Below, one piece after another: positions 18,201-64,000 of a DNA stretch of 64,000 nucleotides (position 1 is the first letter of the stretch; every line of letters begins with the position of its first letter). The position numbers and the translations under genes are program-made. The stretch comes from Candidatus Omnitrophota bacterium (GTDB lineage: Bacteria; Omnitrophota; Gorgyraeia; Tantalellales; Tantalellaceae), in contig JADGBR010000009.1 in NCBI GenBank assembly GCA_015231405.1, positions 25,423 through 89,422 of the forward strand, read 5' to 3'. Under the pieces are notes generated by a model that was not told where the DNA came from, searched no databases, and saw only the letters and a program-made list of their open reading frames with translations.

Positions 18201-21200
18201 GACCGTTGAACAATTTCCCGAGCGACGCTCGCGCGGTCTTTACGCCGCTATCTTCTTTGTATTTCGCGAATATCGGATCGCCAAGCGACCAGTACGCCGT
18301 CCACCTGCCCATTTCTCCCGGTCGCCTCGCGACACGGCGCCTGAACTGAAGGTCGGTAGCCATAACCTCGTCAATATAGGTCGAGTACGCCGAGATGCCT
18401 TCCCTCGCGGATATGACGCCCCTTAGCGCGATATCCATGCCGCGGCTTCCGCGGTTGGACACGATCGTTATCATCCCGTCGTTTCCGCCTGTATCCTCTA
18501 TCCTTTTAATATCCGCGTCCGAACCGGACGCAAAAATATTTATCCGCTCCTTTGCGATAGCCGCGCCTAAAGCCTTCTCGATGCCTTTAATTATGACCTC
18601 TATCTCCCCGTCCATAGCCTTTATAAGGATAGGCGCGTTGCTATTGACCTTTTCCGCTATATCCCGTAACATGGCCTTTTCTTTTTCTTTTTCGTTACGG
18701 AATAACATTATTGTATCCTCGCCAAGGCTCATATATCTGTCCGGTATGACAGGCTCGACGACTTCCTTATTATGTACCCTCATCATGAACTCTTTGTCCA
18801 TAGTGCCGCTAGCGCCCGCAAAATCGGCGATAATGTCCCTATTTTGTAGAAATGACTGAAGCATGCTGACGTTCCGCGTGGCGTGTTCGAGGTTCACTTC
18901 AACATTCTCTTTAGCCTCTATCGCCGCGTGAAGGCCGAAAGACCATCTTCTTCCTTCCATTTCTTTTCCTTCGGTCGCGTCGATAAGCACAACCTCGCCG
19001 TTTTTTACCATGTAATCCCTGCCGCGTTTGTAACAAACGGCCGCGGTTAAAGCCTGCTCCACGAGATATTTCCAGCCGAGGAGATCATTATGATCAAGAT
19101 CGGTCTCGCCCACTTCCCCGGGGTTGGCCCTGAGTACATTCCTCAGGCATTCCTCGCCATCACCCGTCAACGTCACTGTTTGAGACGCGGCTTTGGAGAG
19201 ATCCACTAGTCCGGGCACGGTCTTGGCCCGCTTTATGATAAACTGGGCCATCTGTCGGGCCACGATAAAACTCTTTCTTATCTTTTCGGCTTCCTTTTTA
19301 TCCCCACCGGAAATGACAAAAGGCGTCATGATCTGGTATATGAGCGCGGAGTCCGCCTCGTCGAAAAGCGCGAACCATTTCCTGGCGGAGAAAGCTATTT
19401 CCCCTTTTTCGACAGCCAGTTCTTCGGATTGGCGCCTGTGCACGAATTTGTCGATCTTTCCGTAAATAATATTGGCTTTCCGATAAAGCTCCGTAGCCGG
19501 CACGGGATCCTTGCCCATTTTTCCCGTTAATGGATCATATAAATACCCTATATCCCGCCCTTCCTTATTCCGGCCCGCGGCGTACCCGCATACAAGCCCG
19601 AACGGCTCGAGCATCTTCGCCGCCGATTCCGCGTCCCTAGCCGCAAGGTCGTCGCTTGAGGTAACGACAAGAACGCCCTTGTCCATCGCGCTATATCCTT
19701 TTTTAACGGCCAGCATATAAGCACAGAGCCTGAGAGCAAGTGTCTTCCCGAATCCCATCGGTATCTGGTACATCTTCCCTTCCGCCATGTTTCTGGCCGC
19801 ATCCGCCTGTATGGCGAGTTTACCTATATCGGGAGTGCCGCCCGTAGCTTGAAACATGTCTATTTCCCGTTCGAGCATGATCCTCAGGTCTTTTTCCCTG
19901 CTTAACAGCTCGGTTTTAGTTATGTCAGCGTTCAATGGAATTATCGGGCTTCTCCCTAGGAGAGGATTAATAAAGGCTGACAGAAGGGTTGCGACCAGTA
20001 TAAGCCTGGCCACGATCCAGTTCTTTCTCGGAGCGGGCGCTTTCGTCAGATCCTGAGCCGGCTCTTCTTCCGGTACGGCGATCTCGAAGGTTTCGGCCAT
20101 AACGGGTTCCTCTATCGCGGCGGGGACAGCTCCATCGGAAGTATTCGGCTCAGGCGATATGGCCGCGACGGTCCCACTTTCGATTAGACTTGCATCCGGT
20201 ATATCCGCCGTAACAGGGGCCGGTGATCCTATCTCGGGATAGACCACGGCTTTAGCCTTTTCCGCTATGATCTCGCCGGCTCTATCGATCTTCCGCTGTC
20301 TTAAAGCGGCCAGCTCTTCCCTTATCGAATCCGGATCTTTAGCCATCCAGGCTTTAAGCTCAGTCACTCCGGGTTCTTCGACCTTTGGATGATCAGCGCC
20401 GAGTTCCGCGCCGTAGGTTCTTTCCATATGATCGTTGATCCCCTGTATCGTCCGAGCTGCAAGAAGCATCCTTTCGAACCTGGGCTTCCAGTTCCTGCCG
20501 AAAGACATGAGAGACCTACCCCTCCCCTTATAGATGTCTACCCCGGCATCGGAGAGCATATTTATCTGTTCCTTAAGGAATTCCAGGTCGAAATCCGAAG
20601 ATATGATCTTTTTGATCGCGGCCGTTTCTTTTATACCCAGCGCCCTGAATACGTCTTGTTTGGTCAGGGCTTCGGCAACCCAAAGTTTACGGACCATCAC
20701 AGTAATATCCTCTGTTACGTTCCCTGTGACTAGAAGTTTAGGGTGTTTCCTTATAATATACGCCTCGTCGGTCTTTGTGACATACCATTTGAGGCTGCTT
20801 TGTATCGACCGCGAGAACACCGTGCCCGAAGCCAATTCCTCTCGGGTAACAGTTGTTCCAAGCTTTTCACCCGCGTCCTCGACCGCTTTCAGGAAAAGCC
20901 CGAGAGCTTTCCTTAAAACGCCGTCAAAATTGGCGATATCGACGACATTGCCATGCCTTGTCCTCATTAAAGACAGCAAGGCGTCCTGATGGATCTTTCT
21001 CATGAGAAGAAAGTTATACACATCCTTGGTAGAAACGGCCGTCTCTTCGACTCGCGGATCGGCCATCCCCGAAGCTAAAACCAGGTGCCCGATCTCATGC
21101 CGTAGGGCCCATGCCACCGCCGGAGCGACGCACATGTACACATCTTTCCTTTTAAACCTGGTTATATTTTCAGCGACATATATCGCCTTCTCAAGGAACC

Positions 21201-23538
21201 TGGCGTCTATTTCGACAACACCCCTCACGGAGTCTATGCTCATAACTTTCTGTTTGACCGTTCCATATTTGATCTCTAAGGCCTTACCGGCGAGGAACAT
21301 CTTTTCTTCCGCGCTTAATAGGCCCATCATATCCCCGACAACGGCGATCATTTTAGCGTCGAGCCCTGTTCCGGACAGCGAGATCCGTCCTCTGTCGTCG
21401 AACCGGCCGCTAAAAACACTTGTGCCGGCTCCCTTAGCCATTGCTACAGCGTTACCCTGGCCGGCCGCCCGCGCTTTTAATTGCCCGTGCCTTTCTTTTT
21501 CTTTAGTCGCCATTGTCCTGAATATATATTCGTTCCCCTCCTTATCCAAAGCTATTTCATCGGGCGAACCCTTGTCATCGTTCGATATCGTAGCGGTGCG
21601 GCCGAGCGCGAAAACACTTATGCCCCCGAGATAAGCTGCGAAAATCTCCGGAGTTACCCGGGCCATTGCACCTTCCTCGCTATAGGCACGTTCATAAGCG
21701 CGGGCCCACTCCGCCTTGGCCTCTTTTATATCCTTTCCTTCCAGCACCGCCGCGCCAAGCGCGCGGTATATCGCCCTATTAATTTTTGCGAATTCCCCGT
21801 CCCACTGGTCGAAGAACGCCGCTAGCGCCAGTTGATACTTTCCCGACTCAAGCACCTTCTCATAATCGCTTTTTTTCTTAGTCAATATCGCGATGTACGG
21901 CCTTTCCTTTCCGGGACCGTATTTGGGAACGACAACGAGATACGACAACCCGTTCTTTTTCATCAGCGACGTAAGCCCTTCCGAATGGAACCCGCCGCTT
22001 ACAAGCGCCGCTATCTTTTCACCTTTCGACCTCATTTCCTTCAAAGTGTTATTGAAGAGGACCTTGTTCCTCTTTTCGGCGTCGATGTAGAACTTCATCG
22101 CTGTCCCGAGAGCGCCGAATATTTCGGCGAGGTCATAACCCTGAACTATTCCCGCTCCAAGCTCCCGGCAATTCCTGTTTATATACTCCGCCCATTCTTC
22201 GGGCTTTAACCTTCCGAGTGAGGCGTTAATGCGCCTGAACTCGGGCTCGCTTATCTCCATCTCATACAGCTGCAAGAGGAGCCTCGCGAGCTCAAGCTTC
22301 TCGAACACCTCGCGTTCCCTGGCGCTCTTCATCAGCTTATCCCCGAGACCCGATTCAAGGCCGGCTATCTCGGAGTAAAGCCCCAGAAAATTAATCGATT
22401 CGTAAACGCCGATGTACTCGTTGAATTTCATCATATTCGCGTACCCGCAGAGCGAAATGCCCGACCTATTCGAGAGGTCGACGAGATAACCATGGAATTC
22501 GCTTTGCGCAATTTTTTTCTGTTTAAAAGCGACGGACTTAAGGACCAGCGTCTCGAGGTCCGTCCGCCCTATGGCCTTTGAAAGCGCATTGATAAGGGCC
22601 AGACGTTCGATATTCGCCTTTTCAAAATTTATTAGCTCTTCAAGCTCTACTGCCCTTATCAATTTTGATATCTGGACATACGGTGAAATGTCATATCCTG
22701 ACTTTTCGATGACGGGATATAACGCCTTCCAATACTCCTTGAAGCCCATATCTCCTTTTCTGTGAAGGAAGGCGGCATTATCGACCGTACTCATGTCAGC
22801 CGATAATATCCTTTCCCCGATCCCGGATATCTGCTCAACCAGTTTTTCCAGCTGAAAGCTCAATTTTGCCCTTTCCTCGACGACAGCACGGAAACTTTCC
22901 ACATTCTCCATATACAGCTCATTATCTTCGATGCCGTATAGAGCGATCTTCTTATCGCTGATTATCTGATAGAACTCGCAAGCGCTCATTAACCCTTCAT
23001 TCATGAGATGAGCGGCGGTCTCCTCTTTGATCTTCTCGTCCGGGAAAGTTCTCAGTATAGATGTATCGATATATCCCGTTGATCCCTCGATGGCGACCAG
23101 TGAAAGGTCATAATCCGTAACCAGCTTATCGACGAGAGCCGCTATTGAATACTGGGCCTCTATAGATGAATGAGCGTCCTGAATATTGACTATCGTCTCG
23201 CCGCCAGCATTAAGCGCCCTTTCCTTTATACTAGAGAGATCGTCAGGCAGGGATATGTCATATTTTTCGCGCCTGTCGATCTCTCCCGTCACTTTCGACC
23301 CTGATACTACCCACACGGGTTTACCATTCTCTGTCCAGCCGATCTCATTTTCAACGAATATTACCGATAAAATAATGGATACGATCTTAATAAATTTTTG
23401 ATTCCGGGCTTTCCATGTGCTGATAAGTATATTGTCGTTCTCCTCATCTCTACCTTCGATAGGTTTATCATGGAAGGGAATATTGATCTTTGAAAAAAAG
23501 ATCTTCAGAAGCCCTTTCTTTTCACAAATTGTTTTCAT
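1..23538 (-). CDS. Giant multidomain membrane protein (gene D). At least 7846 codons lie in the window and the 3' end lies beyond the window start
   Basis: The start is ATG at 23536-23538 on the minus strand. An AAGGAAG Shine-Dalgarno sits 7 nt upstream and an in-frame TGA lies at 23566-23568. The frame (codon first bases at coordinates divisible by 3) stays open down to position 1. The ORF track omits it, presumably because there is no stop in the window; only short antisense plus-strand ORFs cover this span. Hand translation was checked at more than 15 sites. Motifs recovered include [22 protein letters not shown] (start), [10 protein letters not shown] at 23190-23160, [13 protein letters not shown] at 22002-21961, [91 protein letters not shown] and [21 protein letters not shown] at 186-121. 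Confidence 0.85.
   Translation of the reverse strand, partial: [7846 protein letters not shown]
7900..9300 (-). repeat. Tandem ~160-aa protein repeats in D (motif YD(D/N)xxDPxxAY...[10 protein letters not shown]). The same repeat begins the visible part of C
   Basis: Translation of 8760-8701 gives [20 protein letters not shown] and of 8280-8221 gives [20 protein letters not shown]. C residues 7-35 read YDDLRAPSFAYVRIRDPLSRDTGKIFRVDV. Confidence 0.55.
10550..11400 (-). other. Domain in D: clan GH-A (GH5-like) glycoside hydrolase (beta/alpha)8-barrel-like domain
   Basis: [40 protein letters not shown] (11340-11221) matches the GH5 strand-1/2 signature GFNxVR(I/L)P. [11 protein letters not shown] was found in translation of 11160-11101 (about 11145-11113). 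[11 protein letters not shown] at 10968-10936 matches the GH5 acid/base region (L/F)ELxNEP. AIHHY and IAVWNWN follow downstream as expected for the family. Confidence 0.5.
12900..16000 (-). other. Long Lys/Glu/Ala/Arg-rich alpha-helical region in D, a predicted coiled coil of about 1000 aa
   Basis: Translation of 14220-14161 gives [20 protein letters not shown] and of 13620-13561 gives [20 protein letters not shown]. There is heptad-like charge periodicity and almost no Gly/Pro runs. Confidence 0.45.
16300..17850 (-). other. Polytopic transmembrane block in D, about 515 aa with roughly 10-12 hydrophobic helices, immediately after the SecA-like core
   Basis: Translation of 17160-17101 gives [20 protein letters not shown]. 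The surrounding translation is dominated by 18-25-residue hydrophobic stretches separated by short charged loops. Confidence 0.5.
17660..20060 (-). other. Domain in D: SecA-like preprotein-translocase ATPase core (NBF1, NBF2 and helical scaffold-like region)
   Basis: Direct translation gives Walker A PMGFGKT (19761-19741), [24 protein letters not shown] (19374-19300) and [40 protein letters not shown] (19020-18901). It also gives [24 protein letters not shown] (18480-18421) and an arginine-finger segment [12 protein letters not shown]. These match in order the SecA signatures [85 protein letters not shown] and RGRSGRQGDPG. Confidence 0.7.
21085..21099 (-). other. HEIGH (HExGH) zinc-metalloprotease-type motif in D, in a hydrophobic context
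   Basis: Direct translation of 21120-21061 gives [20 protein letters not shown]. The motif fits the HExGH of M50/S2P-type or M48-type intramembrane zinc proteases. A carries HELAEH (not canonical) at a roughly comparable position. Confidence 0.3.
21979..23331 (-). other. Domain in D: conserved N-terminal domain shared with A and B. It is tentatively TIKI/TraB/GumN-like and follows a signal-anchor helix
   Basis: D residues ~70-520. The stretch [45 protein letters not shown] is about 75% identical to A residues 86-130. The second His motif GGFHSEG (D) corresponds to GGYHADG (A) and GGFHTGG (B), matching the G-x-x-H-x-x-G pattern described for the TIKI/TraB/GumN superfamily. The family assignment is tentative. 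Confidence 0.45.
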
Positions 23539-24065: not shown

Positions 24066-25427
24066 TTACGAAGAGTCTACTATCCCCGCAAATGGATTAT
24101 CATTGCAAAGTAATATCGTTTTCAGCGTATCAAGTACATCCATCCCGTTCAGTTTGGCCGTCTGGATCACGCTCATAAGAACGCTATGGTATCTAGCTCC
24201 CTGTTCCGATCTGTTGCCGTATGTTATCTTTCTCCGGATAACTCCCGGCCTTATTTCCCGTTCCGCACGATTATTGTGAGATTCGATATCTTTCACGTAA
24301 AAAATGGTGAATATCTCGTTCTTGTGCCTCTCCAGCCTTTTAGCGATTCTATTTAATATTTTCTTATTCGGGTCAGGGAACCTGAAATCCTCAAGACTTT
24401 CTACGATCCGTTTTCGTCTCCTTATATACTCCTCATCCCATTCCTTATTTCGATGTTCGTCGTATAATTTAATACCATCCTTCAGTATCTTTACTAGCCG
24501 CCTGGCGTATCTTATAACCCCCTTATCCTCCCTGTCCCAGAATTCTAGTACCTTTGACAGGTCCCTTAATAAGTGTAATAAACACCGCTGCTTCTTCGCG
24601 GCTATCTTGTTATATGCCGATAAAAAGTCCGTTATCAATACCCCCGTCATAGTGGTCTCCAAGGATACTTTGAACGACCTTTTGCCCCCGGCTAAGGTCT
24701 ATGTGTATCACACTGACGAACCTGGTAACGAATTTCCATAACCACCCCGTCTTTCCGTTTATCTTCCAGCCCGTCTCATCACCGTTGTTAAACGGGCTTT
24801 TTCTTAATTCCGTCATCAGTAGGGAGTATATCCTTTCAGCCTTAGCAGCTGCTTGTCTCCTGAAATCCGTAATAGCCGAATGACATAGCTTAAGTCCAAA
24901 GATCTTATCAAATACTTTACGTATATCCCCGTCGGAGACTTTAACGTCATATTTCATGTATATGGCCAGAGCCTTGGCGATGGGTCCGATGCGACTGTTG
25001 TCCAGCTCGTCCTTACCCCGGCCGGTGACCGTATCCCGGCACACGGGACAATAGTATTTCTTCTTGTCAAACCTGGTCGTTATTATCCCGGGCATGATTA
25101 TGTCCTATGAGTGTGCTGGATGGTTCCCTGGCATTGTCGCAAGTCGCTTGAACCGCAGACCGGACATTCAGTTATCCGGACCTCTACGATCTTGTCTATT
25201 TTGTCTGGTGTTTGCCTGAACCAGCCGATGTGACCGAACAATCCGCCTATTTTAGACTTGGATCTTTTAGATGTTTTCTTCTTTGATTTGGATCTCGGTT
25301 TTTTCTTTCGGTTGAAGAAGTCCGATTTGAATTTATTAAGTTCGAATCGCAAGCAGACTATTTCACCGCGTAATTCCTTAACGGTCTTTTCATAGTCAGA
25401 GCAATCTTTACAACCGGTAATTTGCAT
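24066..25427 (-). pseudogene. IS66-family (single-ORF, ISBst12-like) transposase broken into three frames
   Basis: ORF 25427-25098 ends CPVCGSSDLRQCQGTIQHTHRT. Two bases later, in a different frame, ORF 25095-24610 begins MPGIITTRFDKKKYYCPVCRDTV, so the N-terminal zinc finger is split. That ORF contains DETGWKINGKTGWLW, matching the IS66 DETPxxVxGKxGYLW motif. ORF 24662-24066 overlaps in a third frame and contains HNNRAEREIRPGVIRRKITYGNRSEQGARYHSVLMSVIQTAKLNGMD, matching the IS66 DNNxAERxIRP...GRKNxLF...TAKxNGxDP motif. The two frameshifts indicate a pseudogene or a sequencing error. Confidence 0.65.
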
Positions 25428-26150: not shown

Positions 26151-29100
26151 TCATGCGGAGATCAGAGCGCGCCTGTAACCTTCTATGGCTTCCCGAAGTT
26201 CCAAGTAGTCGATCTTAATGATCCTAGGAATGTATTTAAGAAGACCGCCCGCTATATTGAACCCGAAAAGCTTTTTATCTTTTAAATATGCCATGAATCT
26301 GTCGTTATCGAATTCGGAGTGTCCGATCGACGCCCAGTACGCGATAAAATTCAAAGCGGCGTCGTAGATCTCGCCGGTAGCGATGGCGGACGAATCATCT
26401 CCGTTCTTATACGCTATGACCCTTATATTTTCAGGAAGGGCATCTTCGGAACACATGGCGTCCGGGTCGAATACCGTTATGTATGTTTCAGCCGGAAATA
26501 GCTCTACGGCTATTGCAGCGGCAGTTCTGGCCTTAGCCTCATCAATTGTTAAAAGCTCTATATTCTCCTCTTTCAGATATTTTATTCCCATTTCCTTGAG
26601 GAGCTTCGCCTTCCCGGTTCTCCGCGATACCCGAACGAGCTGTTCTTCCCCGGCAGTTACCGGAGCGAGAACTATCCTGATATCATGTTTCGCTCCTCTT
26701 TTTCTATATGCCTCGGCTATCATTTTCAACTCTCCGAAGGTCCTTACTTTAACCATCAAAGCGTCCTTTCTTCCATCGGCCGTTTTTATCTCCCCGGCCA
26801 TATAATTTACGGCGTCTTTTGTAAGCGAATCCTGCGGCGTCGAGTCCGAACTTATTTCAGAGAAATTCATATTGTAAAGCCCGAGATCGTTAATGAGCGG
26901 CATTATTACCGGAAGGAACATCTTTTCCATTATTGAACTGACGCCCGCATATACTTCTTTGTATTTACCCAGCCGAAGGCTCGTGAACGGGGCGGTTCCA
27001 CCGTCTTTACCCCGCATTAGGGCGTCTAACGCCTCGCTTTTATCCAGGACTTCCATCCGCGCCTCATGTGTTTCCAACTGAGAGACGATCGCCTTTACCT
27101 GTTCGGACACTCCTCCCTTTACGCCGCTGAGCGCCTCAGCCTTGACTATGCCTGTCAAAGCTATTCCTCTGGCTTCGGCGATCTTCGAGATCGTATCGAT
27201 ATTCTTACTCGCGTCAAACGCATTCTGCGTCTCCGGAAGAACAATGAATACGAACTCATCCCTTGGGAACTTTGCCAGCTCCGCGTCTATATCGGCTTCC
27301 TCGAACCCCTGGAATTCCTCTATGCCTATCACGAACCTTTCCCTGACCGGTTTTATATCACCGATCTTTCCCGTTTCGGCCGCAAACCTGGCGTTAGCGA
27401 TGAACCTGGCCCATTGCCTCACGCTGAAAAAAGGATGTTCTCCGCCGGGAGTAAGAGCCGCGGCGAGCTTTTCGGGAAAGCCCGCTATCCTGGCGTCCCC
27501 GGCCGTAGCCTCCTCATCCTCCTCAATAAAGAAAATTATTTTTTCGCCGTCTTCCAGGTCAAGCTTGTTCCAGTTCGAAACAATTCCCGCATTACCTATA
27601 AATGTTTTTGACTTGATCCCTACCCTGATGAACAGCTTAGTATCGCCTTTACAATACCCGGCGCATAAATTTGCCAATGCCCTGCAATTACTTATGTCCC
27701 CGAAATCCAGTTTATTGCTCAACACGAACTTATACGAGATCTTTTTCATACCCAGGACCATATATGGCTTGATCTCATCAAGCAGCGCCCCGGCTCTTTC
27801 ACCCTCGGTCAGGATGAGCATTTCCCTGGATAAGCCCGTATTAATTTCCGAAACGCCGCCTTTATCGTATTTTTTTCCGTCATTTATGATCGCGAACCTC
27901 ACATCCGGATACTTTGGCAATATTTCCTCGACCGCTGCCGCAATATCCTTCCAATCGATCCCTTGGGGAGTAACGATCTTATCTGTCCCGGCTCCAACGG
28001 TAAAACCGTGTATGACCCTGATATCGCTTGCCTGTATCGTGGCTTCGGCGATAGGCGCGCCTTTTTCGCCGTAGACTCTCGGCTGATCCTCACCCTTCAC
28101 CCTGACCTCGAACGCCCTGGCATCGGTAGGTTCCGCCCCGGGATGTTCGCCAAGATACCCGTCATCAAGAACGCCGGCCAAAAAATCTATGAATTTCTCG
28201 ACGTCCGTCTTTGCGCCTTTGACATCAAACCCGACTTTACTGCCGCATTCCATGGCGTATTCCAATAGAACGAGCATGCTGTCGCATTCCATCGAAAGAC
28301 TAGTTCCGTCCTTTAATATCCCGTTCACTTTCATTTTTAATTTCAGCTCCATCAGCTTCCTTATTATAAGATCGCTCACTCGCATGTGCACTCCGTTAGG
28401 GGTCACTACCAAAAGTTCCAGCGGCACTTCGACCTCTCGTTCGTCACGGATCTCGGGCATTATAGGGCCAGCCGTCTCTTTCATCCCGCTGGCTTTGGCC
28501 GGGGAAGGCTCTTCCGCCCGAACATCCTCTACGGGTCTTCCCTCCAGTTTTCTTGAAACATTAGTCATGGATTCGGCCATCAGCCTGTTAAATTCGGGAG
28601 ATCCTCTCATCCTATCGAACCGCACACGGACTTTTTCAAGGATCTTCGCCTCTATTTCTTTATCGGGGATCCCCTCCCATCCTTTAAGAAGCTCAAAAAC
28701 ATTTTCGGCGCTGGTGAACCCTATGTTGGTCTTGACCTTAGTGATAAGTTCCGGGAGCACGCCCTGAAAGAGCGGTATCCCGTATTTCTTAAGGAAATAC
28801 ATGCTGAAAAAGAGCGTTTTGTCCAGTCTCGCGTAATCCCCGCATATCGAAACGGAAACGCCGTTTTCGGAAGCGGCCGCCATGACCTGATCGATCTTCT
28901 CCAACACGGTTTTATTGAAATCGGCGTCAGAAATATCCGTCCTGGGCTTACCGGAAACGGCGGAGGTCAGATCGTTAGATCCTACGCTAAGGAATTTCAG
29001 ACGTTTTCCTTCACCAAGGTCAAAAGTTAATATGTCACGTATGTCAGCCGCAGCTTCAAGCGTTTCTACCATTATACCTATCGCAAGCCCATCTATCCTG

Positions 29101-32100
29101 GCGACGTCGAGATCGCTGATCTTATCAAGGAGCTCCCTCCGGCATTCGGCGAGAACGCTCTTTATGAACTCCATATCTTTTATGGTCTTGACCATCGGGA
29201 ACATCATCCTTATGTTCCCGTATCGGGAACGGACATTAGCCGTCATTATAGCTTTGACCTGGTTCTTAAGCGCCCACCGGCCCGGCTCCGTCCGGTAATA
29301 ATCAAAACTGTTTATCTCTCTTCCCTCATCATCTTTTACGGAAGGGAGAGCGGAACAGATCTTGTCATTCTCCCTGTCGAAAGTCCTTAATGTCACGGGT
29401 TTATCCGCGACGTCGGCAATGGACCTGAAAAGCTCAGACATACTGGCTATACCGGGTTCGACTCCCTTGACGCCGTACATATATTCCGTCCGCCCGAGAG
29501 CGATGCCCGAAGCGCCGTACCGTTCGTACATCTCGCGGACAGCTCTCACCGCTTCTTCCTTGTTCCCGTAAAGGTTTATGTTGCCGTAAACCTTGACGTC
29601 GGCTCCGTCCATTGTTTTCGCCGAATCATCCGCTTTGCGTGAGGCCGCTTCCATCGACGCATAGAAACCCGACATGACCCTTCCTTCCATGTAATCCTGG
29701 AATATCTCCGTCGTGGGCTCCCCTAAATGGACCTTGGCGACGTCGGTCTCGCTGCCCGTGACTTCCTTGTAAATTATCGAGACCTTCTCGCCCATTCTTA
29801 TTTTTTCGTCGAAAAATATCTCGGGTATACCCAGGACGAGAAGAGCTCCCATACCTGTGGCGATTATGGCCACATGCTCGGTCGTGGAACCGTGGGAACT
29901 CACGTAAAATTTTACCCCGTATTTCTCTGTGAGCGCCCTTAAAAGCAGGTCGTCCCTTATGAGCGTCCTTGTCATAACCACCGGCGGACGGGATAAAGCT
30001 TCCGCTTTCTTCATCTCGGCCTCTACTTCGCCCAGAACAACGTCCTCGAGGTCCATCTCCTCCAGAAGAAGGTCGATTATTCCGCTTATTATCGCTTTGA
30101 TCGCAAGCGCTTTGAACATGAGCTCTTCCGAATGCAGTTGCGCTACGGCGTCGACCGAAAAATTCATCTCATACCACAGGCGCAAAGCGAACCGCGCGGT
30201 ATAGCCCTTATCTCTCATAATATCCGAAACTCCGGCAAAAACTATCTCCGCGTGTTTTATCGTTCCGGGGCCTAACGCTTCCAGCTTATCACCATTTTTA
30301 GCCCTTTCGAAACAGGAAGATAATTTAGCCTGTTCCAGCTCCTTTTCGCGTTCCCCGGCAATGTATCCGCGGTCCAAAGTCCGTACCAAGTTAACCATAA
30401 GGTTATTGGTGCTGTCGCCGTTGTCGACCCCGAGCCGGTTATTCCTGTACAAACGGTAGACTTTCGAGAAAACCTGGCGGGCGGCGCTGGGCTTTGGCGT
30501 CCCTTCTTCCTTGAGATCCACCTCCCGATAAATTTCCATGAGAGCGCCGTACATCCCCTGGGCTATGCTCCTTTCTCTTTCATCATGGGCCATATCCATT
30601 GCTTTGTCATAATATTTGATCCTTGAACCCAGGACGCTTTGAAGATGCATCCTTTCCTTGTCAAGATCGTCCTCGGGCACCACGGCCTTGCCGGTAAGTT
30701 CGTTCTCTTCTATCGTTTCCCTGCCAACGTCAAGGACCACGGCATACCCGTCGAGAATAGCTCCCGGGATACCGTTAGAACGGCATATTACGGCTCCATC
30801 CATCAGAGCGCGGTATTTGCGGATCGTTCCGGCATATGCCTCTCTTTCTTTTTCCAAAGAACCCACTATCTCAAACACGCCTTCGGAAGCCGTTGGGCCC
30901 GTTTTCCTGTATGAATCATAGAGTCCGGATAATTGTTCGTCGCTAAGCTCCTCTTTTTCCGATAATGATCTCTGGAACTGGAACAAAGAAAGGAATATTT
31001 CGGCCTGGTTCCCGCTTTCTAGCGGCCTCGCGGGATAAATATGATGGTACATGCCTCTTGTCTCGATCAAAGGCAGGATACCTGATGATGATATCCTGTC
31101 GCTTATGGCTCTAAAATCTCCGGCCCTGTCGGTCGTCGAGATCATTATCTGCGTCATTGGCCCGGCCCCTTCGAGCCCCTTTTCGACGTCAGAGGGTATG
31201 TACCTCCTTCTGTCGTTCAAGACCACAAAATACTTTTTCACGCCTTCCGAAGCGGCCTTCTCAGACATCCGGTAAGCCGTCCAGAGGTCGAATATCTCAT
31301 CGTAGAGATAGTCCGCGTGCCTGACTATGTGGTAAGGTACGAACATCCTCTCCATAACGGCCCTGGCGAACTCGAACGGTATGGGTTCGGCCGCTTTAAG
31401 CTCCTCGGGCAGGTCGGACAAACTCTTTAGCGAATTTATCAGGTCAGCTTCTTTTGATATCCGATCAAGGACGGCTCCCGAGGCGCCCTCATAAAGTCCC
31501 GCCGGAACCACGGGCGCGCCTGTCTTTTGAGGTTGCCGCTGGGGAGTGACTTCCTCCCGCACAAACTCCTTTGGTATACCCACAAAGAGATTTATCGCGG
31601 GCAATAATACCAGCATCCCCAGAAAATGAGCTATGCCCGCTCTCACACCGGGATCGGACGGAATATTCAGGCGCTTCATGAGTTTAAGAGCCCTGTGCTC
31701 GGCGAGCTCGTGACTGAGGATATTTCGCCGTACCCATTGTTTATTTATCAGCCAGAAAGCCGCGTGCGGCCTTTGTACGCCTTTTAGAGTCACGCCTGCG
31801 AGATGAACGCCCTTAAGCCCCTCTTTCTCTTCTGATGTAAGATAAGATCTCCCCTCGGAGGCCTCTATCTCCGAGAGTTTCCAGCGGGTAAGCGCTCTGT
31901 AAGCCTCCCCTTTTATCAGGTAAAATCGGATGGAAGCGTATCCCGCGTAAAACCCGGCTCCCATTATAGCGGCTGAGCACCAGGTTAAACCATGTGCGGC
32001 CGCCATATTGCTCAACCCGAAATAAACAAGCGCCCAGGCCGTAACCAGGCTAATACCGTACCACCTGACGCCGGAAATGACGCGGAACGAGTGAGCCGGC

Positions 32101-34625
32101 TCACCCGGAATGTCCCCACCAGTAGCGGATGTCTTAATGACCGGTACGGGCACGGCTTCCGGAACGGCGGACGGCGCTGCCACATAGACAGCTTGTCTGG
32201 CTGCTATTTCCCCGTAAGCGCTCCTTACCCTCACGAAAAACGCGTTTAAACGTTCCGCTATAGTATCGCCGTTCGATCCTTGTAAAGTTCCATAGAGCGC
32301 CGCGTAATCGTAGGGTATCTTTATTCCCTTGATGTCCCTGATCAGCCCGATGATATTCCGGTCGGAAGGCTCGGCCTTATCGTGATAGATCTTTTCGGCC
32401 ATCTGCTTTACCACAGCATCGTTGTCAGCCAGTCCGTCAAGAACCGGCTCAAGTTCCATACCGGCAACTACGGAACGCTGTATGAGAGCGCGTATCTCAG
32501 GCATGGCATGGCCTTCATCCGTCACGCCATCTAAAGTCCTTAACGCTTCTGCGAAATCATCCGGAGTTCCGGGCTTAGACGGTTCCATGGGCACTTTCAT
32601 TCTGGCGTTAAAAGCCCTTCTCTCGGCCGGGGAAGTTATCCTGAACTCATATTTAAGAGGCTGACCGTTCTTAACGGCCTCCCGCACTATGGTAACGAAA
32701 GTCACGACCGGAGAATTACCGTCATATATCACCGCGCATCCGCTGACCTTTCTGACGGTGATATTGTCGATGAACCGCCCGAAGGTTTCCGCAGCGATAA
32801 CCGGCCTTCCGGGCCCGGCAGAATGAGCGTCATAGTGAACGGCATAATCGGCTTTCCATTTTGCCTTTAACGACACGGTATCAGCTCCGCGAAGCGATGC
32901 TTCACCGAGAGAATAGAAAACAACGGGCCTTACGATATCAAAAGCATACTCGGGATCTTTAGACAGTCTTTCGGGGGTCAGTTCGTCAAAAAAGCCTTTT
33001 AATGCCAGCTGATACCTGCCGGCATCAAGCACTTTTTCGTACCGGCTCTTTTTATTAGTGAGCACCGCGATATACGGTCTTTCATTCCCTTCCGCGTATT
33101 TAGGTATAACTATGAGATACGATAAGCCTTTCTTACGCATGAGCTCGGAGAGACCGTCGGCGTGATATCCACCGGTAATAAGGGCAGCGACGTTCCTTCC
33201 CTCCTCCCTCATCCTCTTTACCGTGTTATCGATGATAGACCTGTTCCTTATCTCCGCGTCAAGATAGAACCGCATCGCCGGGTCTATCCCGCTCTCGATC
33301 GCGTTAAGATCGTACGCTCCGGCTGCCGGCACGCCGTATTTGGCGCTCCACTTCCTTAAAAGACGCGCCCATTTGCCCGCTCCAAAGTCCCTCCTCCTCT
33401 CTTCTATCGCCTGGAACTCTCCGCTTGAAAGCTCCATGGAATACAGCTGCTTTAACATCCTGACGTCGTTCATCATCGAGTATAGCTCGCGCTCGTCAGA
33501 GTTCCTGTAAAGTCCTTCCATGACCCTTGACTCGGCGAGCGCCGCGTCACGGTAAAGCCCGGCCACATTGATAGAGTTGTATATCGAGACATATCTCGTG
33601 TATTTTATGAGATCGCCGAACCCTTCGCTATCTATCCCGTTCGATCCCGCGAGTTTTAGCAGATATCCGTGGAACTCCGCCTCGGCTATGCGCCTATTCT
33701 TAAACGATACTGATCTAGAGACGAGCTCTTCAAGCGACCTTTTATCCAGTACTCCGGCAAGGCTGTCTATGAGCCTTTTCCGCTGGGCGTTCGCGAGTGA
33801 AAAATCTATGGAATCCTCAAGCGTGACGGATTCCACCAGTTTATCAAGCTCCTTGTATTCCCCGATATCCACGCCGGACCGCCTGAGCATAGGCCCGGTT
33901 TTTCGCCAATAGCCCTTAAAGCTTTTTTCGCCCGAACGGTGCGCTATGCAGTTCGCGTGAAATTCCCTGAGTTCCTCCGACGAACACTTAGCCTCGAACG
34001 CTTCCAGCTGAGCTAGAAGCGAATCGATATTAGAGCGTTCCTCCGACATCATGCCGGCGAGTTTTCCGAAACTCTCAACGTTCTTCGCGTATAGATCCTC
34101 ATCCTCTATACCGTATAGCGCTATATCCTTAGAGGAAGTCACGTCGAAGAACTCTCCGGCGCTCATCCTGCCTTCACTCATAAAATGACCTGCCGTATCC
34201 CGCCTTATATCCTTATCCGGAAATGTTTTCAAAACGGAAGTATCGATATACCCGGTAGAACCCTCTACCGCCACCAGAGACAATTCGTAATCATTGGCCA
34301 GCGAATCGAGAAGTTCAGCTATGGAATACTGCGCGGATAGCGACGAATGGGCGTCCTGGATATTGACTATGAGCTCTTTTCCGCCGGTCGAATTCACTTC
34401 GCTTACACCCGCTAGGTCGTAAGGGATCGCAATATTTCCCCGTTCAGGATTATCCCCCGGAAAGGTTGTCCTTTGTATTTCGGCATATTCCCACGATGAC
34501 GAGACATCGGCCGTAAAGCCGCTTTCCTGCCAGAAGAAAACGAAGGCAACGAGAAGTGCAATCGTTCGGATAAATAACGGATAAGAGCTGTTCTCTTTCT
34601 TACCGCGTGAGAAGTTTTTTGACAT
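26151..34625 (-). CDS. Giant multidomain membrane protein (gene A), 2824 aa. Domains are the N-terminal conserved domain, a PTS Enzyme-I-like phosphoHis domain, a PEP-utilizing TIM barrel, an HPr-like domain and the shared C-terminal domain
   Basis: Complete ORF from the track, ATG at 34623-34625 and TGA at 26151-26153. Hydrophobic signal-anchor at residues 20-32, further helices at 857-905 and 996-1018. It shares N- and C-terminal domains with B, C and D. Confidence 0.9.
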   Translation of the reverse strand: MSKNFSRGKKENSSYPLFIRTIALLVAFVFFWQESGFTADVSSSWEYAEIQRTTFPGDNPERGNIAIPYDLAGVSEVNSTGGKELIVNIQDAHSSLSAQYSIAELLDSLANDYELSLVAVEGSTGYIDTSVLKTFPDKDIRRDTAGHFMSEGRMSAGEFFDVTSSKDIALYGIEDEDLYAKNVESFGKLAGMMSEERSNIDSLLAQLEAFEAKCSSEELREFHANCIAHRSGEKSFKGYWRKTGPMLRRSGVDIGEYKELDKLVESVTLEDSIDFSLANAQRKRLIDSLAGVLDKRSLEELVSRSVSFKNRRIAEAEFHGYLLKLAGSNGIDSEGFGDLIKYTRYVSIYNSINVAGLYRDAALAESRVMEGLYRNSDERELYSMMNDVRMLKQLYSMELSSGEFQAIEERRRDFGAGKWARLLRKWSAKYGVPAAGAYDLNAIESGIDPAMRFYLDAEIRNRSIIDNTVKRMREEGRNVAALITGGYHADGLSELMRKKGLSYLIVIPKYAEGNERPYIAVLTNKKSRYEKVLDAGRYQLALKGFFDELTPERLSKDPEYAFDIVRPVVFYSLGEASLRGADTVSLKAKWKADYAVHYDAHSAGPGRPVIAAETFGRFIDNITVRKVSGCAVIYDGNSPVVTFVTIVREAVKNGQPLKYEFRITSPAERRAFNARMKVPMEPSKPGTPDDFAEALRTLDGVTDEGHAMPEIRALIQRSVVAGMELEPVLDGLADNDAVVKQMAEKIYHDKAEPSDRNIIGLIRDIKGIKIPYDYAALYGTLQGSNGDTIAERLNAFFVRVRSAYGEIAARQAVYVAAPSAVPEAVPVPVIKTSATGGDIPGEPAHSFRVISGVRWYGISLVTAWALVYFGLSNMAAAHGLTWCSAAIMGAGFYAGYASIRFYLIKGEAYRALTRWKLSEIEASEGRSYLTSEEKEGLKGVHLAGVTLKGVQRPHAAFWLINKQWVRRNILSHELAEHRALKLMKRLNIPSDPGVRAGIAHFLGMLVLLPAINLFVGIPKEFVREEVTPQRQPQKTGAPVVPAGLYEGASGAVLDRISKEADLINSLKSLSDLPEELKAAEPIPFEFARAVMERMFVPYHIVRHADYLYDEIFDLWTAYRMSEKAASEGVKKYFVVLNDRRRYIPSDVEKGLEGAGPMTQIMISTTDRAGDFRAISDRISSSGILPLIETRGMYHHIYPARPLESGNQAEIFLSLFQFQRSLSEKEELSDEQLSGLYDSYRKTGPTASEGVFEIVGSLEKEREAYAGTIRKYRALMDGAVICRSNGIPGAILDGYAVVLDVGRETIEENELTGKAVVPEDDLDKERMHLQSVLGSRIKYYDKAMDMAHDERERSIAQGMYGALMEIYREVDLKEEGTPKPSAARQVFSKVYRLYRNNRLGVDNGDSTNNLMVNLVRTLDRGYIAGEREKELEQAKLSSCFERAKNGDKLEALGPGTIKHAEIVFAGVSDIMRDKGYTARFALRLWYEMNFSVDAVAQLHSEELMFKALAIKAIISGIIDLLLEEMDLEDVVLGEVEAEMKKAEALSRPPVVMTRTLIRDDLLLRALTEKYGVKFYVSSHGSTTEHVAIIATGMGALLVLGIPEIFFDEKIRMGEKVSIIYKEVTGSETDVAKVHLGEPTTEIFQDYMEGRVMSGFYASMEAASRKADDSAKTMDGADVKVYGNINLYGNKEEAVRAVREMYERYGASGIALGRTEYMYGVKGVEPGIASMSELFRSIADVADKPVTLRTFDRENDKICSALPSVKDDEGREINSFDYYRTEPGRWALKNQVKAIMTANVRSRYGNIRMMFPMVKTIKDMEFIKSVLAECRRELLDKISDLDVARIDGLAIGIMVETLEAAADIRDILTFDLGEGKRLKFLSVGSNDLTSAVSGKPRTDISDADFNKTVLEKIDQVMAAASENGVSVSICGDYARLDKTLFFSMYFLKKYGIPLFQGVLPELITKVKTNIGFTSAENVFELLKGWEGIPDKEIEAKILEKVRVRFDRMRGSPEFNRLMAESMTNVSRKLEGRPVEDVRAEEPSPAKASGMKETAGPIMPEIRDEREVEVPLELLVVTPNGVHMRVSDLIIRKLMELKLKMKVNGILKDGTSLSMECDSMLVLLEYAMECGSKVGFDVKGAKTDVEKFIDFLAGVLDDGYLGEHPGAEPTDARAFEVRVKGEDQPRVYGEKGAPIAEATIQASDIRVIHGFTVGAGTDKIVTPQGIDWKDIAAAVEEILPKYPDVRFAIINDGKKYDKGGVSEINTGLSREMLILTEGERAGALLDEIKPYMVLGMKKISYKFVLSNKLDFGDISNCRALANLCAGYCKGDTKLFIRVGIKSKTFIGNAGIVSNWNKLDLEDGEKIIFFIEEDEEATAGDARIAGFPEKLAAALTPGGEHPFFSVRQWARFIANARFAAETGKIGDIKPVRERFVIGIEEFQGFEEADIDAELAKFPRDEFVFIVLPETQNAFDASKNIDTISKIAEARGIALTGIVKAEALSGVKGGVSEQVKAIVSQLETHEARMEVLDKSEALDALMRGKDGGTAPFTSLRLGKYKEVYAGVSSIMEKMFLPVIMPLINDLGLYNMNFSEISSDSTPQDSLTKDAVNYMAGEIKTADGRKDALMVKVRTFGELKMIAEAYRKRGAKHDIRIVLAPVTAGEEQLVRVSRRTGKAKLLKEMGIKYLKEENIELLTIDEAKARTAAAIAVELFPAETYITVFDPDAMCSEDALPENIRVIAYKNGDDSSAIATGEIYDAALNFIAYWASIGHSEFDNDRFMAYLKDKKLFGFNIAGGLLKYIPRIIKIDYLELREAIEGYRRALISA
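26154..26918 (-). other. Domain in A: shared C-terminal domain
   Basis: KMFLPVIMPLINDLGLYNMNFSEI ... ending YLELREAIEGYRRALISA. It is homologous to the C-termini of B (ELESRRQALWSA), C (NEFKRYQEILTRA) and D. Confidence 0.6.
28146..28418 (-). other. Domain in A: HPr-like phosphocarrier domain
   Basis: VVTPNGVHMRVSDLIIRKLMELKLKMKVNGILKDGTSLSMECDSMLVLLEYAMECGSKVGFDVKGAKTDVEKFIDFLAGVL aligns with HPr (APNGLHTRPAAQFVKEA ... SNGKSASAKSLFKLQTLGL ... EGEDEQKAVEHLVKLMAEL), including the active-site His. Confidence 0.55.
28776..29528 (-). other. Domain in A: PEP-utilizing enzyme C-terminal TIM-barrel domain (Enzyme-I-like)
   Basis: IALGRTEYMYG matches RTEFLFM. VTLRTFDRENDK matches IRTLDIGGDK. YGNIRMMFPMVKTIKDMEF matches GNLRIMFPMI. 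IGIMVETLEAAADIRD...FLSVGSNDLTSAV matches IGIMVETPAA...FSIGTNDLTQY. Confidence 0.7.
29751..29903 (-). other. Domain in A: PEP-utilizing enzyme mobile (phospho-histidine) domain
   Basis: SSHGSTTEHVAIIATGMGALLVLGIPEI (residues 1576-1603) matches the GGRTSHAAIIARELGIPAVVG signature of PTS Enzyme I, PPDK and PEP synthase, including the catalytic His. Confidence 0.6.
33096..34373 (-). other. Domain in A: conserved N-terminal domain (tentatively TIKI/TraB/GumN-like)
   Basis: IVNIQDAHSSLSAQYSIAELLDSLANDYELSLVAVEGSTGYIDTS at residues 86-130 and ALITGGYHADGLSELMRKKGLSYLIVIPKY at residues 482-510 are closely similar to D and recognisably similar to B. Confidence 0.45.
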
Positions 34626-34697: not shown

Positions 34698-37600
34698 TTA
34701 CGCTGACCATAGAGCCTGACGTCGGCTCTCAAGTTCCGCCCGGGCGTCAACCGGCATAGCCGGCATGTTCATGAGCAGTCCCTTTATGAAATTGACCACG
34801 GCCTGTATCGACCGTTGGTCCGCGGGAAGAAGGTTGGTATCCTTGACCTCGTCGAAGCTCATCATAAAATATATATCGGACGGGGACACCCTTCTGCCGG
34901 TGAACTGCGTGAACAACACTTCCAATTGGTCCAGGTCTTTTTTATCCACTTGTTTATCGACAACCCGTACCGCCGAGAGGACCGATCCGGCGGCCAGCAT
35001 CTCAAGATTGTAATACATACCGTTATCCTTGAGGCCTGACACATCGGGCAATGCCGGGAGTTTGACGGCTTTTGAAAGGATCGCGCTTTCAACGCCGGTT
35101 TCGGTATCAGCGTTCTCATAATTTGCCACTGTTCCGAGTAAAACCTGGCGCGCGTCAGCCCTTAAAGAGCCGGCCCTGATCTCCGAGAAACCGACTTCCG
35201 AGTTGAACGTGATTATTCTGGCATCTATCCCAAGTTTCGTCCTGAGTACCTGCTCCAGCTCCCTTTTCTCATCGCCCGTGAAGGCTTCTTTGGGCATTAT
35301 ATAATCTATCTTTTCACCGTTGAGTTTAGCCGAGTAGGCCTTGGCTGTCTGGAACGCCTTAACTATGGTTTTTTCAGGACCCATAGGGATATGCCCGGTA
35401 TATACCCTGGTATCCTCGTCGGCTGACACGAGAGTATATTCCCCTAAACCCGCTGATACCATTTTTCTATCTCCGGATTTCAGGGTAATGATATTCCCAT
35501 CCCCGTCCCTGAGAAGTTTTCCCGTACGGTCCACTATTCTGATCGCTCCTTTCTCAACGGAAAGGATATGGTCAGAACGACTCGCCAACGCGTCAACTTT
35601 CACTGACCCGCCCATAGTCATTGTATACCCGGTCCTCATAAAATTGTCGCCGATCCCGATGATCTCGACCTTCGCGTCCCGCGCGTCAGAAGTGATAAGC
35701 GGCACCGGTGCCGCTTCAAGGGTTTCCACAGTGCGATCGCCCGCGGCGAGCTCACCGGAGGCGTCAATATCCAGAAGATACTTAGTTCCGTCGAGCGCCT
35801 CACCGCTATCGTCAGCCATGACCGCCTGGGGGAAAACCTCTCCCGGAGTTAATTCGCCCTCGCCGGGCATAGCCGCGTCATCGCCGAAGCGCGCCGCGTC
35901 CTGTACGGGAAGTCCGGCCAGGCGTGACCAGTTCTTAGCGACAATACCGCTAAGCCCTTTCGGGTCACCGACTTCAGGCCCTGGGTGGCTATCGCTAAAA
36001 ACGGAAATAGTCCCGTCGCTCATGATACCGAACCCTAATTCTTTGAACTGGTTAAGCTGCAAAAGCGCCCTTATGAGGGGAGGTGCCAGATATCTGCCCT
36101 TTGACGACATCTTCGGGTCCTCGACGTCGAGACCGACGGCTGAAACCCTGTCGCCCGTCCTCTCCCTGACACCTGCCCTGTCGGCCGGTATATAGTGCGA
36201 TTCATAAGCGGTGTAAAGAGAAGGCTCCCTTAAAAGCACGTACGTCATGTAATCCGCTACCATCTCCCAATCGGGTTCCGGTGATCCCTTCTCAGCCTGC
36301 AGATCCGCCCTGTGCTGCACCGACATGAACCTGTAAAGGTCTTCCATCATTGTCGCGGCGGTCGTTCCCGGAGGATCGTTCTCGAAAAGGGCGTTGTGGA
36401 TATAGATCATTAGAGCTACCTTATTATCCCTGATGGCGGCCCCTATCTCCGGTGTTATTATCGCCGAACCGATATTCGATACCAGCGTCGTTGGGAACAT
36501 AAGAAGAAGCCTGGAGTTCCTTATCGCCATTTCCGCGAGCGGATTAGAGGCTACTTTTTCGCTCGGCACAAGGACTTTTATCACTCCCTGGATGTCGCCT
36601 TCGTTTATTGCTTTTCTCAACGCCTCTTTTTGAGCCGCGTCAAGTACCGGGCGTTCCCTTATGACCGTCTTCTGGAACGGCCCCACCTTGGAGATCTCAT
36701 TGAAAGCGTCTTCGGATGGAAGGAACTGTATCCTTGTCGTGGGAACACCGTTTTCGTCTGTCTGGTAAGCCAGACCCGCGAGATGATATCTCCTTAACGT
36801 CACCGGATGTACCCGTCCCTGAACGTCAAGGAAAGTCTCCATTTCCCTTATGGTAAGATACCACGCGATATCGGCGCTGGTAGATCCCGCCTCGATCAGT
36901 ATCGATATTTCACCGTCTATCGCCGCCCTTTCCTCCGTCGAGAGAAAACCGTCCGGGTGGTCAGGAGCGGGTTTCGAAAGAGTAAGGAGCGCCGAACTTG
37001 GCACTGTCCCGCCAGGAAGCGCGTCTATCGCTTCATTGAAACATATCTGTGCGCCCACAAGGGTCATACTCCTCAAAGGCATGTCATATTTCGGGATCTC
37101 CACATTGGCGCAGAACTCCGCGTAAAGAAGGTCCCTAACTATCTGATCTTTCCCGTCCCTGATCAATTGATTGAGGACATGCTCGAGTTTTTCCTCAAGC
37201 GCGAGCACCCTCTCCTCGGGGTCGAGTTTAAGATCGCATAAAAGATGTCCCTGGTTTCGGGTAGGGTTCAGCATCTCCCAGAGCGTATTATCGGTAAGGC
37301 CGATTATGGCGCCCTCGGCGTCCCTCTTCGTCATTTCCGGGTGGGACTTCGCGAAATAAGCGAGTATATTTCCGACGAACGCCCCCCACACCTTTTCAGG
37401 TTCAGCCTTGGTCTTATCCTGTAATATACATTCCCTAAGTTCCGTAAGCGTATGTACCAATATCTCCTTGGCTTCGGCTACGGCCATACCGCCTCTCCTC
37501 ATATCATCCAGACGGCGATTGAACGCGGCTACATAGCCGTTAATAGCTTTAACCTTGGGAGCGTTCTTCGGCGAGACCTGCCCATACTGGGCCATGCGTA

Positions 37601-63980: not shown

Positions 63981-64000
63981 CGTGAAATTGTCCTCGCCAA

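Follow-up and report, generated by a model that had tools for sequence, protein, structure and literature searches.

An N-terminal module shared by giant Omnitrophota proteins, with a predicted TIKI/Ere-type fold and putative catalytic residues

The Ras/Rap1-specific endopeptidase (RRSP; 5W6L) of the Vibrio vulnificus MARTX toxin is a TIKI-fold peptidase within a very large multidomain protein. RRSP structurally resembles the TIKI-superfamily proteins HopBA1, Bcr135, ChaN and PMT, and the Ere family has been linked to them. Its residues E3900-x-H3902 are followed by E3930 (28 residues after H3902), R4001 and H4030 (29 residues after R4001), and all four His/Glu residues as well as the Arg are essential (PMC6254334). 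The spacing of H85 to E113 in Bcr135 is also 28 residues; TIKI depends on a metal, RRSP does not, and EreB/Bcr136 can catalyse without one (PMC6254334). The giant proteins of Omnitrophota have N-terminal regions in which domains can mostly not be recognised, except for C39 and S8 peptidases, which were suggested to cleave these proteins into smaller ones (West-Roberts et al. 2023, bioRxiv 10.1101/2023.11.21.568195). Here we analysed a stretch of 64,000 nucleotides from a Candidatus Omnitrophota bacterium (contig JADGBR010000009.1), referred to as the window, in which four very long open frames (A, B, C and D) are present, all on the minus strand. A, B and D are headed by a common N-terminal module of roughly 550 residues, consisting of a membrane helix and a domain behind it; the remainder of each protein is referred to as the payload. 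Structure predictions and conserved residues make it probable, with fairly good confidence, that the module is by structure a member of the TIKI/Ere/ChaN/TraB superfamily in which a His/acid/Arg centre is still functional.

Relative to the erythromycin esterase (Ere) family (EreC, 6XCQ; Bacillus cereus Bcr135, 2RAD/3B55, and Bcr136, 2QGM), the module is without a PF05139 match and has a helical insert of ~300 residues, a membrane helix at its N-terminus and payloads that run to thousands of residues. From the TraB/GumN/TIKI proteins (PF01963: E. coli YbaP, Enterococcus PrgY/TraB, vertebrate TIKI1/2 and Tetrahymena TraB, 8BQS_DQ) it differs in the lack of a significant PF01963 or hhalign match, in its first motif, which is Q-D-A-H instead of the G-x-x-H form (GSIH in YbaP), and in a core that is interrupted by a large helical domain. 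Shared with these proteins are a conserved Glu at the end of the next strand, an Arg-Asn motif and a second motif of the form G-x-x-H-x-x-G. The acid-x-His, Glu (+28), Arg and His (+29) of RRSP are mirrored by D91-x-H93, E121 (+28), R460 and H488 (+28) of the module (numbering of A, used throughout unless stated otherwise), and the first motif is closer to the E-x-H of RRSP than to the G-x-x-H of TraB/TIKI. HopBA1 (a type III effector of Pseudomonas syringae, 5T09) and ChaN (a haem-binding lipoprotein of Campylobacter, 2G5G; PF04187) stand alone as small proteins and have no helical insert; ChaN binds haem and is not an enzyme, and the PF04187 score of the module lies far under the 27.7-bit cut-off. 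The N-terminal C39 and S8 peptidases of other Omnitrophota giants (West-Roberts et al. 2023) are likewise putative hydrolases beside an N-terminal signal or anchor, but their fold and catalytic type are unrelated to those of the module.

The head module and its predicted fold

Pairwise comparison of the three heads gave 40.7% identity over 624 residues for A and D (BLAST E 9e-136), and 27% for A and B (E 3e-58) as well as for B and D (E 1e-60); outside the head the three proteins have essentially nothing in common. The motifs IQDAH, VA[VI]EG and GG[YF]HxxG are invariant across A, B and D. The first-pass annotation of this DNA had proposed an N-terminal module shared by the three proteins and carrying these motifs, with a helix ahead of it, and both proposals were borne out, a hydrophobic helix preceding each of the copies. 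The intervals that it had assigned (residues 85-510 of A, 75-505 of B and 70-520 of D) include the motifs but end too early; conservation across the family extends from about residue 66 to residue 546 of A.

The module would begin with a short basic stretch and a single hydrophobic helix, followed by the N-terminal half of the core with D91-x-H93, E121 and E174, an all-helical insert of ~300 residues, the C-terminal half of the core with R460 and G-G-x-H488-x-x-G, and a conserved tail, RPYxAxLT...QLA. In D, alignment with A and B together with the conservation profile places it at window positions 21811-23538 (residues 1-576; this and all further positions in the giant genes are on the minus strand), again with an N-terminal tail, the anchor helix, a core split by the helical insert and the conserved tail. 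The anchor helix of D lies at 23350-23394 (residues 49-63), as judged from hydropathy and a charge count of three K/R on its N side and one on its C side. The motif IQDAH (23170-23184), with D121 and H123, is a putative acid-x-His catalytic motif at the end of a beta-strand, and VAIEG (23083-23097) holds E151, a putative catalytic Glu 28 residues after the His. AEKRN (22066-22080) contains the invariant Arg, R490, 28 residues ahead of H518 in the second His motif, GGFHSEG (21976-21996; G-x-x-H-x-x-G).

Head A (32988-34625, residues 1-546) has its anchor helix at 34509-34580 (residues 16-39 in the model described below), IQDAH at 34347-34361 (D91, H93), VAVEG at 34260-34274 (E121), AEIRN at 33243-33257 (R460) and GGYHADG at 33153-33173 (H488). 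Head B (45186-46808, residues 1-541) is the most divergent copy, 24-37% identical to other members of the family; its motifs are IQDAH at 46557-46571 (D82, H84), VAVEG at 46470-46484 (E112), AVKRD at 45450-45464 (R452) and GGFHTGG at 45360-45380 (H480).

A known family was searched for with several sequence and profile methods. Pfam and NCBIfam scans of A, B and D gave no significant family, and neither did Pfam scans of 31, and then 53, homologues aligned with them. PF01963 gave no match for A, B, D or the scanned Omnitrophota homologues up to E limits of 1 or 10; a significant PF01963 hit, by which the first-pass annotation had proposed to check its assignment to the TIKI/TraB/GumN superfamily, was thus not obtained for any member scanned. 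The erythromycin esterase family, PF05139, was not matched in any scan, and hmmsearch of the PDB retrieved neither EreC nor Bcr135. A whole-module profile search of PDB sequences returned weak EF-hand-like noise on the helical insert only, and a search with the C-terminal core alone found nothing relevant. With hhalign, the family (alignments of 34 and 161 sequences) was compared, globally and locally, with E. coli YbaP, an annotated TraB/GumN protein, and with a 91-sequence alignment of YbaP and 90 relatives; the probability was below 3%. Diversity in the YbaP profile was low because all homologues retrieved for it were close relatives from the Enterobacteriaceae. PF04187 ('Haem-binding uptake, Tiki superfamily, ChaN') appeared below threshold in 2 of 56 members (best E 0.064). 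In one of them (P0183) the match, of 12.8 bits against the cut-off of 27.7 bits, covered residues 484-528, which is exactly the Arg-Asn and GGFH segment, at the C-terminal end of the profile. Since no sequence or profile method was significant, homology rests on predicted structure.

Residues 1-560 of A were modelled with AlphaFold from 34 sequences (predicted local distance difference test score, pLDDT, 81; predicted template modelling score, pTM, 0.71), and the B copy was modelled separately as a replicate (pLDDT 84.8, pTM 0.76). The A model has a helix at 16-39, strands at 72-78, 85-91, 117-120, 124-126 and 169-173, an all-helical part from 176 to 475 and two further strands at 479-485 and 502-508, with low confidence from residue 516; the order of secondary structure in B is the same. 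In structure comparisons seven different superfamily members took seven of the top eight places for the A model. For the B model the top six were HopBA1 (9.5), Bcr135 (9.2), Bcr136 (8.8), EreC (8.4), ChaN (8.3) and TraB (7.9), and the first protein from outside the superfamily scored 7.3. Foldseek against the PDB gave EreC as the top hit, at an E of 0.1 that is not significant. As predicted, the module would have both the TIKI alpha/beta fold with a parallel-sheet core and the fold of the Ere proteins. The TIKI/TraB/GumN-type assignment of the first-pass annotation is therefore supported by the fold of the models and not by any significant sequence or profile match, and its term 'metalloprotease' is not implied by the fold, given the metal-independent RRSP and EreB/Bcr136.

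The conservation of individual residues was assessed in an alignment of 161 sequences, which was made up of A, B and D together with the initial hits and cluster representatives (50% identity). D91, H93, E121, R460 and H488 were invariant in all of the 158-159 sequences covering each column (159/159 for the Asp and His of the first motif, 158/158 for E121 and for R460), and G485-G-x-H488-x-x-G491 was conserved. E174 is a further invariant Glu; G122, G172, E270, M472, G485, G486, P508 and Y518 were invariant as well. The distances from H93 to E121 and from R460 to H488 are both 28 residues and are the same in A, B and D; in E. coli YbaP, H41 to E67 is 26 and R228 to H252 is 24. The RRSP pattern of two His, two acidic residues and one basic residue was found in matching order and spacing, with Asp as the first acid where RRSP has Glu, the equivalence with the RRSP residues being drawn from spacing and secondary structure. 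The His-Glu pair has the 28-residue spacing of H85/E113 in Bcr135, both at strand ends, as compared by spacing and strand position. In the first motif, Q-D-A-H, the His comes after strand 85-91, Gln takes the place of Gly, and Asp stands at position -2. Assignment of secondary structure with DSSP put D91/H93, E121, E174 and H488 of the A model just after strands 85-91, 117-120, 169-173 and 479-485, respectively, and B was equivalent. In the models, this placement of the acid-x-His, the Glu, E174 and the second His at the C-terminal ends of parallel strands is where the superfamily fold carries its catalytic centre.

The helical insert of A (33201-34100, residues 176-475 by DSSP of the model, with the same layout in B) comprises about 13 helices between the two halves of the core and has invariant residues of its own (E270, R282, Y345 and E365). 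It also gave weak EF-hand and TorS-sensor-like matches, which are probably generic helical-bundle noise. The tail behind the core, RPYxAxLTxKKxPYE...GxYxLA, is nearly invariant across the family (R516, P517, Y518, T523) at a pLDDT below 50 in both the A and the B model, which suggests a linear motif or a partner-dependent segment. It is located at 32988-33101 in A (residues 509-546), 45186-45284 in B and 21811-21903 in D; the stretch from RPYIAILT to QLA of D (21826-21903) has equivalents in A and B that are conserved in sequence and of low model confidence.

A and D had been described in the first-pass annotation as about 75% identical in protein and about 85% in sampled DNA within this region, from which recent gene conversion between the paralogues was proposed. 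A, B and D have no region other than the head in common, and protein identity between A and D does reach 78% in one block of 40 residues around IQDAH. The overall identity is 41%, and 78% applies to that single block. The DNA value came from two 60-nucleotide samples that were 17 nucleotides out of register, with an identity of 23% as written and 72% in register. Over the whole module, A/D nucleotide identity is at most 72% in every 40-codon block, third-codon-position identity is 0.21-0.54 (0.26 is expected from composition), and the blocks of high A/D identity are those conserved family-wide. Since the third positions are near saturation, recent gene conversion is rejected, and we give it almost no chance of being correct. 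Judged from the sequences, the A and D heads diverged long ago as paralogues and have stayed under purifying selection, with a local identity peak that stems from the putative active-site motifs.

Distribution, topology and natural splits of the family

A profile search of 1.84 billion cluster representatives yielded 9,608 clusters (50% identity) at E<=1e-3 and 6,436 at E<=1e-30. In each of the 150 best hits the module start lies no further in than about residue 130, and in 149 of them no further than residue 75; their host proteins reach up to 7,834 residues, many being cut by contig ends. The hits with a source name are from Candidatus Omnitrophota, except one labelled Planctomycetota. Scanning one genome for each species gave 187 loci; the best 80 all lie in metagenome-assembled genomes of Omnitrophota or in ones labelled 'uncultured Planctomycetia'. 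A genome often has several loci, and a contig sometimes has two. For the genomes titled 'uncultured Planctomycetia bacterium' (loci L006, L008 and L032 (CAYSJU01) and other contigs with the prefixes CAY and CAZ) the closest relatives are Omnitrophota, and these titles are probably placeholder taxonomy labels and not a wider host range. At 74 of 79 loci the open reading frame of the module is still open where the retrieved DNA ends. Where enough upstream sequence was available, the upstream flank holds a same-strand open frame of at least 500 residues in 40 of 55 loci; tandem arrays like that of the window thus appear to be common. Payloads in the relatives include HEAT repeats and HAD, HD and APH domains. 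Neither West-Roberts et al. 2023 nor a 2026 preprint on Omnitrophota giant proteins mentions the module, TraB or TIKI, and literature searches retrieved no paper linking Omnitrophota to TraB. Overall, the module is a large, Omnitrophota-restricted family without a Pfam model, and it would represent a new architecture in a known superfamily.

The charge distribution around the helix was determined across the family. The mean number of Lys plus Arg was 3.0 in the 15 residues before the helix and 0.59 in those after it, and 99 of 104 sequences were more basic on the N side. Under the positive-inside rule this predicts a module that faces away from the cytoplasm. TIKI, PrgY/TraB and ChaN likewise face away from the cytoplasm. 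The helix may be either a cleaved signal peptide or a stable anchor.

Two independent contigs have an in-frame stop codon 12-25 residues past the end of the module. In the first (L035; SLID01000071.1, 4540-4720) a TAA stands 12 residues past the conserved end and is followed three codons on by an ATG in the same frame and then 991 codons. The second (L083; ENA ERZ27248937 k141_777265, 1838-2125) has a module-only gene of 562 residues, and the next gene begins 22 nucleotides on in the same frame. These stops may reflect gene fission, readthrough or sequencing error; if they are real, head and payload need not be covalently joined. At a further locus (L009; P0001) the module frame overlaps a continuation in the +2 frame, an arrangement that looks like a frameshift.

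Giant genes of the window and neighbouring features

Giant gene D (1-23538) starts with an ATG at 23538 and runs off the left edge of the window, and thus encodes more than 7,846 residues. Its payload contains divergent matches to SecA_DEAD, SecA_PP_bind and P-loop_SecA at residues ~1242-1711 (18406-19815), and the protein has 24 hydrophobic segments; by length, hydrophobic segments and SecA-like domains D belongs with the giant membrane proteins of Omnitrophota. A (26151-34625; 2,824 residues) and B (34698-46808; 4,036 residues) are both shorter than D and have no SecA domains. The payload of A includes a PEP-utilizers_C domain (residues 1664-1933, 28827-29636). That of B includes phosphoglucomutase domains I-III (residues 1017-1419, 42552-43760) and a weak CofD match (residues 3319-3501, 36306-36854), and besides the N-terminal helix B has no further hydrophobic segment above threshold. 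In both A and B, domains typical of cytoplasmic enzymes are found in a protein whose only clear N-terminal feature is an export-type helix. Giant gene C (46971-64000; more than 5,669 residues) starts beyond the right edge, so that its N-terminus lies outside the window.

C and D have a common block of ~2,600 residues, 65% identical and rich in hydrophobic segments, at 56175-63977 (residues 2-2602 of C) and 606-8265 (residues 5082-7635 of D, counted from the ATG at 23538). This block is far closer between C and D than the heads are to each other, which suggests that a large segment was duplicated between giant genes more recently. A C-terminal region of weak similarity (22-31% identity, E 1e-9 to 1e-15) is present in A (residues 2429-2824, 26154-27338), C (residues 5302-5669, 46974-48077) and D (residues 7648-7845, 4-597), and the giants may have a common tail module besides the common head. 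In the low-GC (0.45) gap between D and A lies an IS66-family transposase (24066-25095, minus strand), which is broken into two overlapping frames (positions 4-128 and 126-283 of the Pfam profile DDE_Tnp_IS66) and is probably a decayed insertion sequence.

Possible role of the module

We favour, with somewhat better than even confidence, a head that would be a hydrolase anchored in the membrane, with a common role in the maturation or release of the Omnitrophota giants and acting on a presumed substrate. The helix would insert with its N-terminus in and its C-terminus out, so placing the domain on the outer face of the cytoplasmic membrane. There the domain would act as a hydrolase through a water activated by His and acidic residues, as proposed for the Ere enzymes and RRSP. 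Most likely it would cut a peptide (or ester) bond, either in cis or in sister giants, and so mature or release the polypeptide that is exported. Because one constant head precedes varying payloads, we prefer a shared biogenesis step and consider a reaction specific to the payload less probable. The module, its invariant residues and N-terminal position, the size and taxonomic range of the family and the fold match are observed; the equivalence of residues, the topology, the catalytic activity and the substrate are parts of this model that we infer.

Several observations weigh against this assignment. None of the sequence and profile methods (Pfam, NCBIfam, PDB hmmsearch and hhalign) gave a significant match. 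In the first motif the Gly of G-x-x-H is missing, and the acid is Asp and not the Glu of RRSP. The clustering of the His, acidic and Arg residues in one pocket is deduced from the strand ends and spacing of the models, and cleavage and its substrate are presumed. Payload enzymes that are normally cytoplasmic (phosphoglucomutase, phosphoenolpyruvate (PEP)-utilising and SecA-like) fit awkwardly with export; the 2026 Omnitrophota preprint raises the same puzzle of export versus cytoplasmic-type enzymes.

The resemblance to TIKI and Ere could be convergent or an artefact of modelling, the module being an unrelated three-layer alpha/beta domain with a helical bundle in which the His residues serve otherwise. 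This we regard as quite improbable, since the superfamily occupied seven of the top eight places for A and the top six for B in separate models of copies that are 27% identical, and the positions of four motifs and the spacings between them agree with those of known catalytic residues. Hardly more probable is a fold member without catalysis, a ligand-binding or scaffold protein like the haem-binding ChaN or the inactive PMT C2, that would be used chiefly for anchoring in the membrane or as a platform for docking. The invariance of D-x-H, E, R and H in about 160 representatives is the pattern expected of an active site, whereas PMT is without the 2His/2Glu motif.

Two further readings keep both the fold and the activity. 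The domain could be an Ere-type esterase or another non-peptidase hydrolase that acts in trans on a small molecule or an envelope component (of a prey or host cell, for instance) and has no role in processing of the giants. We consider this unlikely, although less so than a loss of catalysis: a payload-independent head on thousands of proteins is easier to explain by a shared biogenesis role than by a trans enzyme repeated many times per genome, and no Ere Pfam match was found in the scans. About as doubtful is a self-processing head, as had been suggested in the first-pass annotation, in which the TIKI-like centre would cut the chain in cis after the helix engages the Sec machinery and so release the payload. 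The tail RPYxAxLT...QLA would then be a possible cut site, as a built-in substrate or pseudosubstrate, and the natural stops just after the module would be the genetic equivalent of the cis cut. Were this tentative reading true, a self-processing N-terminal hydrolase head would be reused on thousands of payloads.

Returning to the favoured reading, a membrane-anchored hydrolase in a shared maturation or release step, the head provides a concrete candidate for a processing or anchoring step in the export, anchoring and possible cutting of the Omnitrophota giants, proteins of thousands to more than 100,000 residues. The invariant residues form a small set for mutation. The module would add to the TIKI/Ere/ChaN superfamily a large bacterial branch with an anchor helix, a split core and a large helical insert.

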